A DNA stretch of 64,000 bases from an uncultured Gammaproteobacteria bacterium (GCA_964588165.1 CAZPMS010000002.1:15951-79950), one strand, 5' to 3'. Shown: positions 8,677 to 61,119, counted from the stretch's first letter. A program made the numbers and translations. The notes: generated by a model from the sequence alone, not told the origin.

Positions 8677-9621
8677 TTAACTTGTCCAGTAATATGCCAT
8701 TATACTAAAATCCACCAGATCAATTTTACCGTCATTATTTAAGTACTCTGCTTCAATTTGGGCAAACTCTTCATTTAAAGGTTTATTGTACCAATAAGCC
8801 ACTATAGAAAAGTCAACTAAGTTAACTTGGCCGTCGTTATTAACATTGCCTCTTATAAACACATTCTCTTCCATTAAAATATTTTCGGTACCCACCTCAA
8901 AACCGATATTATAACTGTAACCGCTGACCATTTGGTTATTTATGGAAGCTCGGGATTTAGTGTTATGGTGCCCATAGTCTAAGATTGATGTATCAAAATT
9001 ACTTAAATAGATGCCATTGGTATCAGAACTGGTGTAGGCAAATTGTTCAATATCTGAATTAACAGCGATAGTAATATCAGCCAAGGGAGTAGTTTGGCCA
9101 AAGATAGCCAGATTATCACCTCTTTTTACTTGGCTTTTATCTATTGTAATGGTAGGAGAAATAAATACTCCGCTAACTGTAGTAATAATGCCTTGGGATA
9201 CAGTTATAGGGTAGGTTAAAATATTAGATCGCCGTTCTTCTTCATCATGGCTATAAAGAGAAAAGATATAGTTGCCAGAAGACAAGCCAGTTACATTTAT
9301 GGAAAAATTGGCGTCTGCTCCGGAAATGGTAGTGGCTATTACTTGGGTATCTTTTAATAGAGTTACTATGCTTTGAGGATAAGCTTTGCCAGTAAATATT
9401 ACACTGGTAGCCGGGGTGTTATAGCCTCCGCCACCGCCTCCTCCGCCACCGCCTCCTCCGCCACCGTTTTCTTCTTCCTCTTCTTCAGGCTCGGCTACTG
9501 TGGCGGAAACATTAACTGTTCCTTGTTCAGCTAAAACATAGTTTTGGGTAAAACCGAAAATAGTTAAAGAGATTACTAATAAAAAAATAGCAATTAATTT
9601 ATTTTTTTTGCTATTCTTCAT
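8677..9621 (-). CDS. Secreted protein with a Glu/Gly-rich linker and two C-terminal dockerin-type repeats.
   Basis: Signal peptide present. EPEEEEEENGGGGGGGGGGGGGG linker. C-terminus NVNNDGQVNLVDFSIVAYWYN...LNNDGKIDLVDFSIMAYYW, which fits the dockerin DxNxDGxIxxxD pattern. Confidence 0.6.
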   Translation of the reverse strand: MKNSKKNKLIAIFLLVISLTIFGFTQNYVLAEQGTVNVSATVAEPEEEEEENGGGGGGGGGGGGGGYNTPATSVIFTGKAYPQSIVTLLKDTQVIATTISGADANFSINVTGLSSGNYIFSLYSHDEEERRSNILTYPITVSQGIITTVSGVFISPTITIDKSQVKRGDNLAIFGQTTPLADITIAVNSDIEQFAYTSSDTNGIYLSNFDTSILDYGHHNTKSRASINNQMVSGYSYNIGFEVGTENILMEENVFIRGNVNNDGQVNLVDFSIVAYWYNKPLNEEFAQIEAEYLNNDGKIDLVDFSIMAYYWTS

Positions 9622-19077: not shown

Positions 19078-19107
19078 AAGGCTCAATATTTTATTGAGTC
19101 TTTTTTA
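19078..19107 (+). terminator. Intrinsic terminator after the nucleoside phosphorylase gene.
   Basis: ggctcaatattttattgagtc hairpin plus tttttt. Confidence 0.6.
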
Positions 19108-21388: not shown

Positions 21389-21817
21389 ATGAAGAAAAAA
21401 ACATGTTGTAGCTGTCAGTGTGGCAAGCCTGACAAACTGACAAAATTTCAGGATTATTTTTTAAGAGGAACCTATGTCTTTTGTTCCTGTTTGATCGTTT
21501 ATTCTCTATTGATGATAAACGGCCTGGTGGCAAGCGATCCCAATTTGAAAAGTGAAAATTTATTAGCGATTTCTTATAAACAAAAGGCAACGGCTGAAAG
21601 TAAGTTAAGTATGTTGCCTAATCCTAAAGAGGTTTGGATGGATACAGTATTTTTTATGGACAGAGTAGGCTATAATATGGGAGAACCTTTAAATGACTCT
21701 ATCCACCTTTATTCCAAAACTTTAACAAGGACATTTGTGGCCACCGGCAATGCCTTGGCAGGAGTAACCAATGTTTTAACCGGATCGCCGCCATACGTAT
21801 CTGCCCAGGGGTATTAG
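21389..21817 (+). CDS. Hypothetical protein with a Cys-rich N-terminus
   Basis: 142 aa. A terminator hairpin lies at 21849-21884. Confidence 0.3.
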   Translation: MKKKTCCSCQCGKPDKLTKFQDYFLRGTYVFCSCLIVYSLLMINGLVASDPNLKSENLLAISYKQKATAESKLSMLPNPKEVWMDTVFFMDRVGYNMGEPLNDSIHLYSKTLTRTFVATGNALAGVTNVLTGSPPYVSAQGY

Positions 21818-21897
21818 CGTTGACTAACTACAATCTTTAACATAAAATGAGGATACAATTTATAAAAGCGTATCCTCTTTTTGTTTAGAGGATAAAT

Positions 21898-22050
21898 CCG
21901 GGAGTAATGTCGCCTGGAGAGCTGCTAGCAGAAACCCGCCTTGAGCGAAGTCGAGAGGCAGGAAATAGAGTTAGCCGGGGTAAGCCCGTTACAGCTTATA
22001 AATGAAGTATAAATTAAGGTGGTACCGCCCTGAGCGCAGTCGAAGGGCCC
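21898..22050. repeat. Two tandem units of about 70 nt each (21898-21962 and 21975-22050). Each starts 'ccggg(r)gtaa' and ends with the family C core 'ccgccYtgagcgMagtcgaRRgg'.
   Basis: Direct comparison of the two halves. The same core occurs in frame inside the Elp3 gene at 60556-60582. The pair lies between two intrinsic terminators (21849-21884 and 22045-22070). Confidence 0.55.
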
Positions 22051-22111
22051 TTATGCATAGGGGTCTTTTTATTTTTAAATAAAAAACCATAATTAATGAT
22101 ATAATATAAAT

Positions 22112-23101
22112 ATGTCAAAAGTGAAAATGCCAAAAAGAGTAGAGCTCCATAACCATTTAGGAGCAGCCGTGGATCCGCCACTTATGTGGTCTATTGCCCA
22201 CGGACAGGGAATTAAACTGCCTTCTAAAGATTATTGGGATTTTGAGGATTTAATTACCATTGATGTTGATGAAGACTACAACAGTGTAGCCCAGGTTGAT
22301 AAAGAACTTTTTTATTGGACAGAATTGGTCCAGTCTTCGCCGTATGCTGTAGAAGCCTCAGTTAAATCAGTTATTGGCGGGGGTTATAGGAAATGTAATA
22401 TTGTAATCCATGAACTAAGGTTTAATCCAATGAACCGGAACCGAGGCGGTGAGCAGGATCTGGATCATATTATTATGGCGGCTGTAAGGGGTATGGATAG
22501 AGCTATTCTAGAATACCCCCAAGTTAAAGCCGGATTGATATTAATGTTAGACAGAAAGTTTTCGTATGAACAAAATGAAATTATCTTTAAAAAAGCTTTA
22601 AAGTATCAAAACAGGGGAATTGTAGGGCTGGATATTGCTGGCCCACAGGTAAAGAGTTTTAAAATGAAAAATTATGTCGGCTTATTTAAAGAAGCTAAGC
22701 GCCGAGGTCTGGGTGTTACCATTCATACCGGTGAAGAAGGTAATTTGGCAGAACTTAAAATGGTGGTTAAGGAAATTAAACCCAATCGGATCGGCCACGG
22801 CTTTTTAGCTTGGCAGGATAAGGAACTTATGAAAGAAATTAAAAGGAAAGGTATTGTTTTAGAACTTTGCCCAACTTCAAACTTAAGATGTGGAGTTATT
22901 AATTCAATGGAAAAATTAAAGAAAATTTATCAAACCTTAAATAATAATGGAGTTAAGCTAACCATTAATACAGACGGCCCGGAAATGTATAAAACCAATT
23001 TGTATAAAGAGCTGGAAGTTTTGAGAACTAATGGCGTTTTTAGCCAAAAACAAATAAACCAATTTATGATCAATTCACGTAAAGCTACTTTTATTAAGTA
23101 A
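22112..23101 (+). CDS. add: Adenosine/adenine deaminase family protein
   Basis: PKRVELHNHLGAAVDP (compare ADA PKVELHxHLDG). HTGEEGNLAELKMVVKEIKPNRIGHGF. TINTDGP. Confidence 0.75.
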   Translation: MSKVKMPKRVELHNHLGAAVDPPLMWSIAHGQGIKLPSKDYWDFEDLITIDVDEDYNSVAQVDKELFYWTELVQSSPYAVEASVKSVIGGGYRKCNIVIHELRFNPMNRNRGGEQDLDHIIMAAVRGMDRAILEYPQVKAGLILMLDRKFSYEQNEIIFKKALKYQNRGIVGLDIAGPQVKSFKMKNYVGLFKEAKRRGLGVTIHTGEEGNLAELKMVVKEIKPNRIGHGFLAWQDKELMKEIKRKGIVLELCPTSNLRCGVINSMEKLKKIYQTLNNNGVKLTINTDGPEMYKTNLYKELEVLRTNGVFSQKQINQFMINSRKATFIK

Positions 23102-23199: not shown

Positions 23200-26100
23200 A
23201 TGAAAGAATTATCTAAATCATATCAGCCAGATAAACACGAAAGCTCAATTTACCAAAAATGGGAAGAGTCCGGGTTTTTTAATCCCGATAATTTGCCAGG
23301 CAAGCGCAAGAAAGTTTTTTCTGTTAGCCTGCCGCCGCCCAATGCTACCGGCATTTTGCATATTGGCCATGCTTCGATGCTGGCTTACCAAGATATTATG
23401 GTCCGGTACCATAGGCTAAAAGGTGATAAAACTTTGTGGTTGCCCGGAACAGACCACGCAGCCATTGCCACTCAAACGGTGGTAGAAAAAAAATTAATCA
23501 AGGAAGAAAAAAAGCGCAAAGAAGATATTGGCCGAGAAGAGTTCAGAAAAAGAATAGATAAATATGTAGAAGAATCCCGTGGCACCATCCGTAAACAGCT
23601 CCGGGCCATGGGCTCATCTTTAGATTGGTCTAGAGAAAGATTTACCTTAGATAAAGATTTATCATTAGCAGTTAGAACAGCTTTTGCGAAAATGTATAAT
23701 GATGGACTAATTTATAGAGGTTATCGGATTGTTAATTGGTGCCCGCACTGTAAATCCACTTTAGCTGATGACGAAGTTGAGTATAAGGAACAAAAGGCCC
23801 CGTTTTATTATTTTAAATACGGTCCGGTGGTTATTGGTACAGCCAGACCAGAAACTAAATTTTCTGATAAAGTAATTATTGTTCATCCTAAAGATAAGCG
23901 TTTTAAAGATATCGCAGGTAAGGAATTTGAAGTGGAATGGATTAACGGCAAGATTAAAGCAAAAGTTATTACCGATGAAGCAGCTGATATGGAAATGGGA
24001 ACCGGGGCCATGACCATTACTCCGGCCCATAGTTTTGTAGATTTTGATTTGGCTCAAAAATATAAATTAAAGGTAGAAGAAATAATTGATAAAGATGGAA
24101 ATTTAACAGAAGTTGCTGGTGAATTTGCTGGTCAACCAGCTGCTAAAGCCAGAGAGAAAATTGTTAATAAGCTGGCCAAGAAAGGCTTAGTTGATAAAAT
24201 TGATGAAGATTACGTCCATAATTTATCTCTTTGTTACCGGTGTAAAACGCCTATTGAACCGTTGCCTTCTAAGCAGTGGTTTGTTGATGTAAATAAAAAG
24301 ATTCCAAAAAAAGGCAAGTCATTAAAGCAACTGGCCTCCGATGTAGTCAAAAATGGTGATATAAAAATAATTCCTGATAAATTCAACAAAACTTATTTCC
24401 AGTGGATGGATAATTTAAGAGATTGGTGTATTAGCCGCCAAATTTGGTATGGACATCAAATTCCGGTTTGGTATAGGGACGCAAAAGCGCAAAAGCGCAA
24501 AAGCGCAAAAAAGGAGCAAGATATTATTGTACCTAAAGAAATAACTGAAATCAATCTAATGCGCCACGGTTTAACTGATTGGAACAAAGACCAAAAAATT
24601 CAGGGCAGAACTAACGTGCCTCTAGATGAATCCAGCGTAGATAAAATTAATAAAATAATGCCTCAGTTAAGGTCAGAAAATTTTGATATAATTATTAGCT
24701 CACCCTTAATGAGAGCCAAACAAACGGCTGAAATTGTAAATAAACAATTAAATCTGCCTTTAATAGAAGATGAATTATTGGTTGAAAGAAATTATGGTAA
24801 ATTTGAAGGGAAAAAAGTAAATGATATAAAAAATGACCATCCTGATTATGCCAAGGATAAAATTAATTATGATATCCCAGGAGATGATGAAGAAACCTAC
24901 CAGGAGATTGCTCAAAGGCTGAAGAAGTTCATTAAACAAGTAAGTAAAGAATATCCTAACAAGAAAATTTTAGTTATATGCCACAATGCAGTTATCAGGA
25001 CTTTCAAGATGATAATAAAGGATTCCTCACCTAAGGAACTTTCTGGCTATAAACCTAGTTTTGACAAGTTGGTTAAATATCAAATTTTAGATGGTAACTA
25101 TAACCTAAAAGGTGTTGAGCAAGATCCTGACACTTTAGATACCTGGTTTTCATCTTCACTTTGGACATTTAGTACTCTTGGCTGGCCAGATAAAACTGAC
25201 GATCTTAAGGCTTATCATCCAACCAGTGTTATGGAAACCGGTTATGACATTTTATTTTTTTGGGTGGCCAGAATGATACTTATGTCCGAATACCTTTTAG
25301 GCCAGAAACCTTTTGAAACAGTTTACCTCCACGGCTTGGTTAAAGATAAAGAAGGCAGGAAGATGTCAAAGTCGCTTGGCAATGGCATTGATCCAATAGC
25401 CATGATTGATAAGTTTGGCACTGATGCTTTGCGGTTGGCTATGATTGTAGGAGCCAGTGCCGGTAATGACATCAGGCTTTACGAAGAAAAGATAGCCGGC
25501 TATAGGAACTTTGTTAATAAACTTTGGAACATCAGCCGCTACATATTATCTACTGTTGGACAAGTTAAACCAATTGAAAAATTGCCAGAAGCAAAAACTT
25601 TAGCTGATAAATGGATTCTTTTAGAATTTAATCAAATCGTAGAATCAACCACTGGTAATATTGAACAGTTTAAGTTCTCTCAAGCCGGTGAAGAGCTTTA
25701 TGAATTTACTTGGTCTAAACTGGCCGATTGGTATTTGGAAATCGCCAAGGTTGAAGAGGGAAAAGATGAGATCCTTTTATACATTTTAGAAAAGCTACTT
25801 ATTTTATGGCATCCCTTTTGTCCGTTTATTACAGAAGTTATTTGGGAGATATTTAAGACAGATAAGCTATTGATGATTAAAGAATGGCCGGAAATAAAGA
25901 AACAAGATATAAAAAACAAGATACAAGATGAATTTGAAAAAGTTCAAGAGATTGTTTCAGCTATCAGGAACACCAGGGCAGAACATCTGGCTAATCCCAA
26001 AAAAGTTTATGGTTGTTCTATAAAAACTTCAAAGAAAAAAGTGATTGAAGAGAATAAAAATATAATTGAAGCTTTGGCCAAAATTAAAATTATTCCTAAG

Positions 26101-26334
26101 GCCACTGGCGTTGCTATTAATCTTGCTTGGGCTGACATGATTTTAGATATTAAGGAAAATAGGGAAGTGGCCAAAAATAAAGCTAAAGAAACTGTAAATT
26201 TAGAACGTTATATCCAAATCCAAGAAGCAAAATTAAGGAATAAAGATTTTACTAAAAAGGCTCCACCTAAAGTGGTGGAGGAAGAAAAGGAGAAATTATC
26301 GCAAGCAAAAGAAAAGTTAGCCAAATTAAAATAG
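23200..26334 (+). CDS. valS: Valyl-tRNA synthetase carrying an inserted histidine-phosphatase (PGAM-like) domain.
   Basis: HIGH motif (PPPNATGILHIGHA). WCISRQIWYGHQIPVWY. KMSKS. C-terminal coiled coil. About 213 extra aa lie between PVWY and DPDTLDTWFSS. They contain LMRHGLTDWN (RHG), GKFEG and ICHNAVIR, the catalytic motifs of the histidine phosphatase superfamily. Confidence 0.9.
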   Translation: MKELSKSYQPDKHESSIYQKWEESGFFNPDNLPGKRKKVFSVSLPPPNATGILHIGHASMLAYQDIMVRYHRLKGDKTLWLPGTDHAAIATQTVVEKKLIKEEKKRKEDIGREEFRKRIDKYVEESRGTIRKQLRAMGSSLDWSRERFTLDKDLSLAVRTAFAKMYNDGLIYRGYRIVNWCPHCKSTLADDEVEYKEQKAPFYYFKYGPVVIGTARPETKFSDKVIIVHPKDKRFKDIAGKEFEVEWINGKIKAKVITDEAADMEMGTGAMTITPAHSFVDFDLAQKYKLKVEEIIDKDGNLTEVAGEFAGQPAAKAREKIVNKLAKKGLVDKIDEDYVHNLSLCYRCKTPIEPLPSKQWFVDVNKKIPKKGKSLKQLASDVVKNGDIKIIPDKFNKTYFQWMDNLRDWCISRQIWYGHQIPVWYRDAKAQKRKSAKKEQDIIVPKEITEINLMRHGLTDWNKDQKIQGRTNVPLDESSVDKINKIMPQLRSENFDIIISSPLMRAKQTAEIVNKQLNLPLIEDELLVERNYGKFEGKKVNDIKNDHPDYAKDKINYDIPGDDEETYQEIAQRLKKFIKQVSKEYPNKKILVICHNAVIRTFKMIIKDSSPKELSGYKPSFDKLVKYQILDGNYNLKGVEQDPDTLDTWFSSSLWTFSTLGWPDKTDDLKAYHPTSVMETGYDILFFWVARMILMSEYLLGQKPFETVYLHGLVKDKEGRKMSKSLGNGIDPIAMIDKFGTDALRLAMIVGASAGNDIRLYEEKIAGYRNFVNKLWNISRYILSTVGQVKPIEKLPEAKTLADKWILLEFNQIVESTTGNIEQFKFSQAGEELYEFTWSKLADWYLEIAKVEEGKDEILLYILEKLLILWHPFCPFITEVIWEIFKTDKLLMIKEWPEIKKQDIKNKIQDEFEKVQEIVSAIRNTRAEHLANPKKVYGCSIKTSKKKVIEENKNIIEALAKIKIIPKATGVAINLAWADMILDIKENREVAKNKAKETVNLERYIQIQEAKLRNKDFTKKAPPKVVEEEKEKLSQAKEKLAKLK

Positions 26335-52358: not shown

Positions 52359-52438
52359 TACGCCCGCCCGCCATGGCTCCGCCGAAGGCGAGTCGGGCGG
52401 GGAGCAGATAATTTATGAAGTTTCAATCAGGGATTAAT

Positions 52439-59487: not shown

Positions 59488-61119
59488 TTAATCATTTTTA
59501 TTTAATGATTTTACCATATAAGTTTCTTGTAATCTATATCCCAATTTGCGGTAGTAGCCTCTTACGCCAATGCCAGAAATCACAGCTACTTTATTTAATC
59601 CATGTTTTAAAGTTAAGTCTTCAGCAATTTTCATCATGCGTTTGCCAAAACCGGTGTGCTGGACTTTAGCCTGTTTGGATTTAACCGGCACCAACTGCCC
59701 GTAAGTATGGACTTCTCTAACTAAAGAGGCATTTTTTAATTCCGGTAGAGCCGCGGCTAAACCCGCGTCTAAACGGTCGGGGTCGTTTATTCTGAATCTT
59801 AAAAAGGAATAAAGTTTATCACGTTTGGGTGATTCATAAGAAATAAAATATTCTATACCATCAGAAGCTTGATATTTTTCAGTAAACAGTTTGGCTTTTT
59901 TTATATCGTCTAAACTTTCTCTGGTTTCCCGGCAGCGCATGCACTTACATTTTAACTTTTGTTTTTTAAGTTCAGCTTGCAAGTACTGTCGTAAGTTTGT
60001 AATCTTATTTCCAGCTTCTATACTTTCTTTAGGGATATCACGAATTAGTCTGTTTATTCTAACGTAATATGGTACAGCCTGTTTTATTTTTAAAAGTAAG
60101 TTTAAAAGTTGTTTTTCTGAATAAGGTTTATATTTATCCGATTTATACCATTTGTAGAGTGGGGCGAATTTATTAACCACCGTAGGATAGATTTTTATTT
60201 GGTCGGGCTGGAATCGTTGATCAGAAAAAACAGTTTTAAACATTTTTAAATCCTTGGCTGGGGTGGAGCCTGGCAGGTCGGGCATTAAATGGTAGTCAAC
60301 CTTAAAACCGGCTGACTTTAATAGTTTAGTAGCTTTAGCTGTCTGTTCAACGGTATGTCCGCGTTTAACATATTTTAAAATTTTATCATCCAAATGTTGG
60401 ACGCCCATCTGAATTCTGGTACATCCCAGTTCCCTTAGCCTTTTTACTTCAGCTTCATTAATTAAATCTGGCCGGGTTTCTAAAGTCATGCCGATAATTC
60501 TATACTTGGCAGTCTCATTTATTTTTTGAGCCTCTTTTAAAGTTTTAGAAGTTTTGCCTGTCCTGAGCGAAGTCGAAGGGCGATTACATACATCAAAACA
60601 CTTTTTTATAAACCACTCTTGGTATTTATTGTCATAAGCAGACCAAGAACCGCCCAGTACCAACAGCTCAATTTTATCAACTGTATGGCCGTTAGCCTCC
60701 AAGGCTTTAATTCTCATTTTAGTTTGTTTGGCGGGGTCAAAATCCAAGGCTTTGGCCCGCTGGGCGGCCGGTTCATTAGAAAGGTAGCTTTTAGGCATGC
60801 CTGGCTCTAAAGGGCAGTAAACACAGTTGCCGGGGCAGAAAAACGGCTTAGTAAGCACTGTAACGGGAGTTACTCCAGAAAGAGTCCGGGTAATCCTTTT
60901 AATTAAGTACTGCCTTAACTTTTCTACTGTTTTATGGTTAAATTGGTTTAAGGTCTTTTTATCAAGTTTTTTAAAAGCTTCGATTAATTCAGAGTTAGGT
61001 GCTGGCGGAAGCTTATGCTGACCTGATAGCTTTTTCTTTAAGTACAAAAACTCGGCATAATTTTTGGGATCTGCCTTTAAAAGAGATAAAACGATTTCTT
61101 TATTGATAATTTTAGTCAT
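59488..61119 (-). CDS. elp3: Elp3-family radical SAM / GNAT protein (tRNA U34 carboxymethyl-uridine synthase homolog).
   Basis: FFCPGNCVYCP radical-SAM Cys motif. C-terminal GNAT GFGKRMMKIAEDL...VISGIGVRGYYRKLGY. An in-frame family C repeat encodes PSTSLRTG. Confidence 0.8.
   Translation of the reverse strand: MTKIINKEIVLSLLKADPKNYAEFLYLKKKLSGQHKLPPAPNSELIEAFKKLDKKTLNQFNHKTVEKLRQYLIKRITRTLSGVTPVTVLTKPFFCPGNCVYCPLEPGMPKSYLSNEPAAQRAKALDFDPAKQTKMRIKALEANGHTVDKIELLVLGGSWSAYDNKYQEWFIKKCFDVCNRPSTSLRTGKTSKTLKEAQKINETAKYRIIGMTLETRPDLINEAEVKRLRELGCTRIQMGVQHLDDKILKYVKRGHTVEQTAKATKLLKSAGFKVDYHLMPDLPGSTPAKDLKMFKTVFSDQRFQPDQIKIYPTVVNKFAPLYKWYKSDKYKPYSEKQLLNLLLKIKQAVPYYVRINRLIRDIPKESIEAGNKITNLRQYLQAELKKQKLKCKCMRCRETRESLDDIKKAKLFTEKYQASDGIEYFISYESPKRDKLYSFLRFRINDPDRLDAGLAAALPELKNASLVREVHTYGQLVPVKSKQAKVQHTGFGKRMMKIAEDLTLKHGLNKVAVISGIGVRGYYRKLGYRLQETYMVKSLNKND

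Follow-up and report, generated by a model that had tools for sequence, protein, structure and literature searches.

A predicted tRNA-Val-specific T-box leader with an ultrashort Stem I and a dispersed mini-hairpin core upstream of an adenosine deaminase-valS operon

The leader of an adenosine deaminase-valS operon, at positions 21891-22077 of the window (i.e., the whole stretch of 64,000 nt of DNA that was analyzed in this study), is very probably a T-box riboswitch that is specific for tRNA-Val and attenuates transcription. This reading is drawn from the sequence and follows from a conserved architecture, covariation, the Specifier, and the presence of valS downstream. By its predicted domains, the leader belongs to a known riboswitch class and is an unusual variant of it, combining an ultrashort Stem I with a terminator in a host from the candidate phyla radiation (CPR). 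By analogy with the family, it would bind tRNA and bring about antitermination. Two hairpin tips of the leader carry a short core that recurs in frame within an Elp3 gene, and this core is probably, though with less assurance, a dispersed insertional element and not a purpose-built RNA module.

The locus and its relatives

The spacer 5' of the adenosine deaminase gene measures 294 nt (21818-22111) and is identical across six independent assemblies, and the encoded protein (22112-23101) is found on a 165-kb JGI metagenome contig and in five other assemblies. Homologues of the adenosine deaminase are labelled Patescibacteria, Komeilibacteria, or Parcubacteria, and the window genome is, as judged from such sequence comparisons, that of an uncultivated CPR/Patescibacteria bacterium. 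The adenosine deaminase gene, which scores under the NCBIfam equivalog cut-off, is followed by valS, and this gene pair is conserved among relatives; valS carries an inserted histidine-phosphatase domain (His_Phos_1, amino acids 452-616). No tRNA-Val gene was found within the 64-kb window.

Roughly 100 related adenosine deaminase loci were fetched, most of which are without such a leader. It was found in three further lineages, with adenosine deaminase identities to the window of 84% (L207), 75-76% (L008 and L218), and 73% (L221). Other close relatives by adenosine deaminase (L007, L009, L208-L215, and L224) have no T-box 5' of the gene and therefore yielded no comparative data. The features of the leader and the operon are listed below in window coordinates.

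21820..21848, plus strand: promoter-like site, TTGACT (21820-25), 17-nt spacer, TAAAAT (21843-48)
21849..21886, plus strand: hairpin GAGGAUAC...GUAUCCUC followed by a U-run; 8 pairs, 100% paired in four lineages
21898..21917, plus strand: putative ultrashort Stem I, CCGGG/CCUGG enclosing the 10-nt loop AGUAAUGUCG; compensatory change from G-C to A-U
21924..21975, plus strand: putative Stem II, base helix GCUAGC/GUUAGC with element copy 1 as its distal hairpin; aligned to Stem II by the Rfam T-box model
21976..21994, plus strand: putative Stem IIA (CGGG/CCCG) with the F-box GCCCGUUA(C)AGC; aligned to the model's CCGUUA and conserved in all lineages
21995..22007, plus strand: weak Stem III, CUU...AAG, 3-4 pairs; CUUC/GAAG in L207, a long stem with an insert in L008/L218
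22011..22052, plus strand: T-box sequence and predicted antiterminator; constrained fold of -9.2 kcal/mol
22042..22077, plus strand: intrinsic terminator (hairpin 22042-22069), 12 pairs and T-run; U-run UCUUUUUAUUUUU
22112..23101, plus strand: adenosine-deaminase-family gene, first gene 3' of the leader; Pfam A_deaminase, E = 3.5e-46
23200..26334, plus strand: valS (valine--tRNA ligase); NF004349 963 bits (cut-off 704), TIGR00422 912 bits (cut-off 612)

The promoter-like site reads TTGAC(T/G)-17-TA(T/A)AAT in all four lineages and abuts GAGGAUA, and the same layout of -35, 17-nt spacer, and -10 next to GAGGATA is found in L207, L212, L218, and L221. The initial annotation had placed two intrinsic terminators on either side of the repeated sequence. 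Both are present as hairpins with U-runs (21849-21886 and 22042-22077); the second one is best described as the expression platform of the putative riboswitch itself and not as an independent terminator. For the first one, we infer that it terminates transcription of the upstream gene and that leader transcription starts within its 5' arm. Its 3' arm (21871-78) has an alternative partner, AGAGGAUA (21887-94), and the resulting alternative hairpin was picked up as a site on the minus strand. A TATAAT box lies 3' of the terminator in all four lineages; in the window it forms an extended -10, TGaTATAAT (22097-22105), 7 nt 5' of the ATG, which may drive leaderless, riboswitch-independent expression.

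Evidence for a T-box with an ultrashort Stem I

With the Rfam gathering thresholds, a scan of the whole window returned only a tRNA-Glu and nothing at the leader. In a permissive scan of 21700-22250, the sole family with E < 0.1 was the T-box leader, matched at 21891-22055 with 27.2 bits (E = 3.7e-4). It was also the sole family with E < 0.1 for L207 and L008 (28.7 and 32.0 bits; E = 4e-4 to 3e-3 over all three), and the domain assignments by the model agree across the window, L207, and L008. The covariance-model search thus gave a match that stays far under the gathering threshold (27.2-32.0 versus 93 bits), as is expected because about 60-90 Stem I model positions are absent from these leaders.

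Stem I consists of 5 bp and a 10-nt loop in all lineages, without a distal double-T-loop platform, an AG bulge, or an evident K-turn. Its apical loop holds the predicted Specifier GUC (Val) at 21909-11, followed by the purine G at 21912. The loops of the four lineages (AGUAAUGUCG, AUUAAUGUCA, AAUCAUGUCA, and (G)AUAAUGUCA(G)) always contain AUGUC and a purine, so that GUC and a following G or A occupy the same loop position in every lineage. A C at the third Specifier position is the "C rule" of the family, which GUC obeys (PMC7583486). The first Rfam alignment suggested a Stem I of greater length (CGGG...CCCG), in which GAA-ACC would be the Specifier; this was rejected, as its pairing is absent in L008 and L207 while the short hairpin and GUC are conserved.

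The base helix of Stem II shows double changes at two pairs. Its internal loop, AGAAA/AAAUAGA, is S-turn-like: L207 has AGUAGA and with it the canonical GAA/AGUAGA S-turn loop, and the window has AAUAGA (AAUA for AGUA). Stem IIA is invariant, and its F-box reads GCCCGUUA in three of the four lineages and GCCCGUAA in L221, with GCCCGU(U/A)A conserved and the core CCCGU invariant. A candidate IIB pairing, putatively a pseudoknot, would join GUAA with UUAC.

The T-box sequence is AAGGUGGUACCGC with a 7-nt bulge (AAUUAAGGUGGUACCGCC at 22012-22029), and UAAGGUGGUACCG within it is invariant in all four lineages. Helix A1 is formed by AAGG (22016-19) and CCUU (22049-52), the bulge UGGUACC (22020-26) fits the canonical UGGNACC, and helix A2 is GCCCU/AGGGC, capped by element copy 2 (22025-22048). 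The discriminator base of tRNA-Val, A73, fits the U of the bulge. The terminator shares the 3' strands of helices A2 and A1, which makes the two folds mutually exclusive. In the window, the minimum-free-energy fold of this segment contains the terminator and has -19.1 kcal/mol versus -9.2 kcal/mol with the antiterminator forced; the corresponding values are -17.7 versus -6.1 kcal/mol in L207 and -15.6 versus -9.7 kcal/mol in L008. Because the terminator fold is more stable, the default state of the leader is expected to be "off", as in the family. A terminator-type hairpin with a U-run is also present in L207, L218, and L221, and in the CPR leaders it lies 25 to about 200 nt 5' of the ATG and does not involve the Shine-Dalgarno sequence.

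Alignment of the four sequences gives 94% of cells paired, versus 30-55% when the partners are slid. Five pairs, located in Stem I, the base of Stem II, and helix A2, are changed on both sides among only four sequences. The paired fraction over the four lineages is 94% for A1 and 100% for A2, and two of the A2 pairs carry double changes.

If the leader works as its family does, transcription would start at the conserved promoter (21820-48), and the anticodon of uncharged tRNA-Val(GAC) would pair with the GUC that the short Stem I presents in its apical loop, a contact that Stem II with its S-turn and the IIA/B element would back. The free 3' ACCA of the tRNA would then pair with UGGU of the T-box bulge and stabilize the antiterminator (A1 and A2), so that RNA polymerase could transcribe onward into the adenosine deaminase gene and valS. 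With charged tRNA, or with no tRNA, the leader would instead adopt the terminator (22042-69 and the U-run), which is the more stable fold.

The predicted leader shares with the attenuating T-boxes of Firmicutes (RF00230; tyrS, glyQS) the 7-nt UGGNACC bulge, the choice between A1/A2 and a terminator with a U-run, a Specifier that matches the downstream synthetase and has C at its third position followed by a purine, a Stem II loop resembling the GAA/AGUA type, and the F-box. It differs from them by its 5-bp Stem I with an apical Specifier, the absence of a platform, AG bulge, or clear K-turn, and its CPR host. Transcriptional T-boxes generally need a long Stem I with the distal double-T-loop, which forms a platform for the tRNA elbow (PMC7583486). 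An ultrashort Stem I is the mark of the actinobacterial ileS T-boxes, which are translational (Sherwood et al. 2015; 6UFG, 6UFM; as reviewed in PMC7583486), and in members of this short-Stem-I class helix A2 and Stem III often bear insertions (PMC7583486). With these T-boxes the leader shares the apical-loop Specifier and the insertions on A2 and Stem III, and it would share dependence on a Stem II S-turn and a IIA/B pseudoknot, both putative here. However, the actinobacterial leaders sequester the Shine-Dalgarno sequence and respond to Ile, whereas the present leader has a terminator with a U-run at least 35 nt 5' of the ATG, a Val Specifier, and a host from a different phylum.

The long-Stem-I rule for transcriptional T-boxes (PMC7583486) would be called into question by a T-box in which an ultrashort Stem I is combined with a terminator, and the leader would offer a compact natural tRNA sensor of about 180 nt. 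No paper linking T-box riboswitches with CPR/Patescibacteria was found in the literature searched, the coverage of which was incomplete, and this is weak evidence of novelty.

The repeated core and its spread

The core was confirmed as a 23-nt sequence, CCGCCYTGAGCGMAGTCGARRGG, at 21936-21958 and 22025-22047 and, with two mismatches, at 60558-80; none was seen in 100 shuffles. The 12-mer GAGCGMAGTCGA occurs exactly three times in the window versus 0.14 expected. The core folds as a hairpin with the conserved 12-nt loop GAGCGNAGUCGA. Readings of the core as a K-turn, a hammerhead core, a SECIS, or a T-loop were rejected by sequence inspection, since required consensus bases are missing. Its copies in the window, and the corresponding sites in the other lineages, are as follows.

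21936..21962, plus strand: element copy 1, Stem II tip, CC(C)GCCUU-GAGCGAAGUCGA-GAGGC(A)GG
22025..22048, plus strand: element copy 2, top of helix A2, GCCCU-GAGCGCAGUCGA-AGGGC
60556..60580, plus strand: element copy 3, antisense within Elp3 (59488-61119, minus strand), GCCTGTCC-TGAGCGAAGTCGAA-GGG; 8-aa insertion
L207: Stem II tip CC-AUUUAUUU-GG (AU-only) and helix A2 GCC-AGAGAU-GGC (3 bp, 6-nt loop); no element at either
L218: different Stem II tip; A2 loop of the same length as that of the window, with mostly GC-to-AT changes versus the L221 loop
L221: different Stem II tip; A2 GUCCC-GAGCGGAGUCGA-GGGAC, same loop with a covarying stem

Two tandem units of ~70 nt, as initially annotated, were not recovered: Tandem Repeats Finder gave no period of ~70-89 nt, and pairwise alignment matches in the 3' core alone. 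The 5' start that the units were said to share, 'ccggg(r)gtaa', occurs at chance level in the window (six matches with at most one mismatch versus 4.3 expected), and the two stretches concerned belong to the putative riboswitch, one as the 5' arm of Stem I and the other as Stem IIA. The only reason why the units look alike is that Stem II ends in, and helix A2 is topped by, the same small GC-rich hairpin, whose loop is GAGCGNAGUCGA. The proposed kinship of the core with family B (591-661, 2438-2508) and with the hairpin after the translin gene (52361-52410) comes down to loose resemblance, as these are separate GC-rich hairpin families.

Comparison of the tips across lineages indicates that the copy in Stem II is lineage-specific and that the copy on A2 is either older or was acquired twice. 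As the A2 cap is common to the window and L221 and the L218 loop has the same length, this cap may be ancestral or functional in the RNA and not a recent insertion.

The core was also correctly placed in frame within Elp3, where it is read on the minus strand as PSTSLRTG. Compared with the archaeal Elp3 family structure 6IAZ, these residues fall in an exact gap of eight (CFDVCNR-PSTSLRTG-KTSK versus CLDAMNE--------RESK). The nearest Elp3 orthologs, P0122 and P0123 (77% and 75% identity), read CFDACN|GK... and are without the insertion, which shows that orthologs do not conserve the segment. A sequence with 99% identity in an independent ENA assembly (P0121) does carry it. The Elp3 segment is likewise accounted for by the mini-hairpin element. 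Artefacts of assembly or of adapters were rejected, given that the leader is identical in six assemblies, the Elp3 insertion recurs in a separate ENA assembly, and the copies vary in a compensatory manner.

When JGI metagenome contigs were scanned with TGAGCGNAGTCGARRGG, at least 120 loci were found. Among the matches listed, which come from contigs of 31-71% GC, about 90% have CCC just 5' of the pattern, i.e., the complement of the GGG that the pattern forces. Farther 5', (A)GCCTG is conserved as well, and the information content is zero immediately beyond the unit of ~26 nt. Together, these three properties argue that the matches are not due to chance. The unit is about 24-26 nt long with the consensus (A)GCCTGCCC-TGAGCGNAGTCGAAGGG, and its sole free inner position, N, is A in 60, G in 32, C in 18, and T in 14 of 124 of the matches listed. 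Copies that were not selected by the scan pattern keep the loop GAGCGNAG(T)CGA and have stems that differ yet remain complementary (atcct/aggat, gcact/agtgt, tcgct/agcga, atggt/accat, attcc/ggaat, and others), with stem positions 1-4 paired in 40, 40, 36, and 38 of 49 copies. A fixed loop on covarying stems points to a structure that is recognized or selected.

The distribution of the element is wide. At least 120 loci with the same CCC context were found in IMG/VR viral contigs, plasmids of Sphingomonas parapaucimobilis carry it in 23-27 places per record, and it also occurs in plasmids of Trichlorobacter lovleyi and in several cyanobacteria. In proteins, it forms an exact 8-aa insertion in RecJ (versus PDB 8Y30), lies in frame in PriA, an IS91-family transposase, NuoL, DnaE2, and a glycosyltransferase, and is tandemly expanded, again in frame, in a DNA methylase. 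Five of its six reading frames are without stop codons, the PST(S/A)LR frame is dominant in long ORFs, and copies in proteins occur in both orientations. Filled and empty sites can be compared for Elp3, for RecJ, and for Stem II and A2 of the leader (window versus L207). The reading as a repeat survives because further copies exist and the Elp3 segment is not conserved in orthologs. The suggestion of an insertion hotspot holds in part, in that the core is a dispersed mini-hairpin copy at two hairpin tips of the leader and is absent from both in L207. One quarter (25%) of the copies lie inside a further flanking stem of at least 6 bp, versus 11% in permuted controls; this excess is real and modest, and would fit an element that prefers hairpin tips or survives better at them.

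From the outside in, the element would comprise a CCC/GGG stem, a U-A pair, tandem G.A/A.G pairs, a G-C pair, a C-G pair with a bulged U, and a GNA triloop, the middle base of which would be N. A sister family, GAGCGNAGCGA, is without the extra U. The loop of the element, GAGCG-N-AG(U)CGA, contains GCGNAG(U)C and thereby recalls the mini-hairpin d(GCGNAGC) with its GNA triloop (Hirao and co-workers; PMC13037366); this likeness is one of resemblance only, as the extra U and the flanking GA...GA are outside the described mini-hairpin. The latter is extraordinarily stable, more so as DNA than as RNA, and the natural occurrences listed for it are phage and plasmid origins and a phage N4 promoter, with dispersed repeats not among them (PMC13037366).

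For the DNA strings of the element, its peptide translations, and small dispersed repeats, no relevant paper was found in the literature searched (incomplete coverage). Very small repeats of cyanobacteria were reportedly described by Elhai et al. in 2008. Like REP/REPIN palindromes and the Rickettsia palindromic elements (RPEs), the present element is a short, GC-rich, dispersed hairpin repeat, and like the RPEs it is found in frame within genes for essential proteins, which it does not destroy. In contrast, it measures ~24-26 nt versus 100-150 nt for RPEs and has a conserved loop with variable stems instead of a conserved palindrome. Its consensus is without the GTAG or CGTC tag of REP (PMC3733652), and unlike REP and RPEs it is not confined to one genus (contigs of 31-71% GC, cyanobacterial, Sphingomonas, and Trichlorobacter plasmids, and viral contigs).

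We tentatively propose that the GAGCGNAGUCGA hairpin may represent an undescribed class of ultra-small (~24 nt, 8 codons) insertional DNA elements of many bacterial phyla and their viruses, with a fixed loop and free stems, that colonizes the tips of RNA hairpins and the surface loops of essential proteins (Elp3, RecJ, PriA, NuoL, and DnaE2) and is spread by some enzyme or by a hairpin-recognizing repair or template-switch process. The element itself probably spreads at the DNA level and survives where it is tolerated, namely, at RNA hairpin tips, in intergenic DNA, and, as eight in-frame codons, in protein surface loops. No transposase for the element was identified, including in the 64-kb window, and no target-site duplication could be defined. 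Small GIY-YIG nuclease genes were considered as partners on the basis of three anecdotal adjacencies, with two such genes in 725 kb of element-bearing loci; such a nuclease is a lead only. If the proposal is true, an element of ~24 nt that adds exactly eight residues would be among the smallest dispersed elements known, would explain the presence in predicted proteomes of many short, odd insertions and 'junk' peptides (ALSEVEG, PERSRR, PSTSLRAG, FDFAQGR), and would be relevant to gene calling and protein alignment.

A different GC-rich hairpin, of 37 nt, is present in L008 and absent from L218. Its position is inside the 5' hairpin's loop, and 4 nt (CATT) are duplicated at its flanks, which indicates that small hairpin elements do insert into hairpin loops in this clade.

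Other readings of the hairpins and the leader

It is conceivable, though rather unlikely, that the GAGCGNAGUCGA hairpin is instead a functional RNA module of this T-box clade, e.g., a stabilizing cap or a factor-binding site kept by selection, and that copies elsewhere reflect reuse of the motif. The same 12-nt loop sits on A2 in two lineages whose adenosine deaminases are only 73% identical, with compensatory changes in the stem below it (GCCCU/AGGGC versus GUCCC/GGGAC), the stem of copy 1 is preserved through a C-G to U-A change, and a covarying stem with a fixed loop is the pattern of a selected structure. Insertions atop A2 are, moreover, often found in short-Stem-I translational T-boxes (PMC7583486). 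However, the closest relative, L207, has a working-looking leader without the element (3-bp A2 and AU-only Stem II tip), and the motif is lost from the L218 loop. No role at the RNA level explains why Elp3 carries the unit in frame in antisense orientation, or why many unrelated proteins carry it in both orientations. A dispersed insertional element remains the favored reading of the core.

For the leader as a whole, decay has to be weighed. It would then be a non-functional T-box relic, with the TGaTATAAT box driving the operon and the hairpins being repeats that pile up in dispensable DNA. Most relatives have lost the T-box 5' of the same adenosine deaminase-valS pair, the window has a weak Stem III and an imperfect S-turn, several loops have been invaded by repeats, and each of the four lineages has a TATAAT box after the terminator. 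Yet, against the background of an AT-rich genome, four lineages retain an intact promoter, Specifier loop, F-box, T-box sequence, and pair of mutually exclusive folds (A1/A2 and terminator), with compensatory changes, and the invading hairpins are found at helix tips only and never disrupt pairing. A relic is considered very unlikely.

Less probable still is a small RNA gene that stands alone, or a mobile repeat duplicated in tandem, with an independent terminator on each side: a promoter-like site and a terminator do delimit a transcript of ~220 nt with two hairpins that share a core, but the units are unalignable outside that core with no tandem period detected, every segment maps to a T-box domain, terminator and antiterminator overlap as in an attenuator, and the position 5' of valS is conserved together with a Val Specifier. 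Of the small RNA locus that was initially suggested, neither a free-standing sRNA gene nor a tandem pair stands, and what is retained is a structured, cis-acting leader RNA.

Putative promoters around the T-box leader

Downstream of the T-box terminator, the spacer before the adenosine deaminase gene contains two sequence elements:

22063-22111 (within), A-tract motif TTTTTATTTTTAAATAAAAAACC, 3' of the T-box terminator
22097-22105, extended -10 box TGaTATAAT, 7 nt upstream of the ATG

Together, these sequence elements suggest a second promoter whose product would be a leaderless mRNA. Each of the four T-box lineages has a TATAAT box 3' of its terminator. Further copies of the A-tract motif occur in the window at 19099, 19901, and 47110, and clear promoters lie downstream of the first two. 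As for the upstream promoter (region 21820-21894), its -10 box adjoins the 5' arm of a hairpin followed by a U-run (21849-86). Transcripts from the upstream promoter probably start inside the 5' arm and escape termination, and the 3' arm, once freed, can pair with AGAGGAUA (21887-94). Promoter and hairpin are retained even in L212, a related locus that lacks the T-box.

Insertions in a related leader and in ValRS

Two further features concern a related leader and the valS product:

L008 3037-3077 (versus L218 ~560-565), 37-nt GC-rich hairpin (…ACCCTGCGGTCTTGCCGCAGGGT…) inserted into the 5' hairpin of the leader, within its loop
23200-26334 (window), ValRS with a His_Phos_1 insert (aa ~450-616), a complete cobC/PGM-like histidine-phosphatase domain in mid-enzyme

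The 37-nt hairpin is flanked on both sides by a 4-nt duplication (CATT) and is absent from L218, which is otherwise identical to L008; a further, nested copy lies 3' of the terminator, ahead of the adenosine deaminase gene. Including its histidine-phosphatase domain, the ValRS of the window measures 1044 aa, whereas those of relatives (844-871 aa) have no His_Phos_1 domain.

Element copies, the Elp3 site, and other hairpin families

The mini-hairpin element, i.e., the GC-rich hairpin that caps Stem II and helix A2 of the leader, is also found in head-to-tail arrays (L091 ~970-1140; L103 4272-4380; an ORF in L182), namely at least eight copies of a 17-nt unit (TGAGCGGAGTCGAAGGG), four copies of a 27-nt unit, and an expanded PSTS(L/V)(R/T) tract within a DNA-methylase-like ORF. 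Only three cases were found of copies directly upstream of small GIY-YIG nuclease genes (~100 aa), one of which also carries a copy in its 3' end:

L216 (S. parapaucimobilis NZ_CP155752), 1487-1960
L112, ~2836-2930
L116, ~8800-8900

From these three cases, a GIY-YIG nuclease as possible partner enzyme of the element is a weak lead.

The Elp3 position directly after CFDxCN (window 60550-60590) is an insertion hot spot: many CPR orthologues (P0124-P0178) carry different short insertions at exactly this site, e.g., SYPSVSRGF, NYNQPRSRGIY (twice), and EFSSVILNEAKRNEESKS, besides others. Several look like translations of GC-rich hairpin families other than the mini-hairpin element.

The AT-rich genome of the window itself harbours additional GC-rich hairpin repeat families, each distinct from the GAGCGNAGUCGA element:

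591-661 and 2438-2508, 'family B', containing GCGAAGC
45759, 46269, and 47715, second family, with the palindrome GCTCGCGAGC as its core
52361-52410, third family, a hairpin 3' of the translin gene
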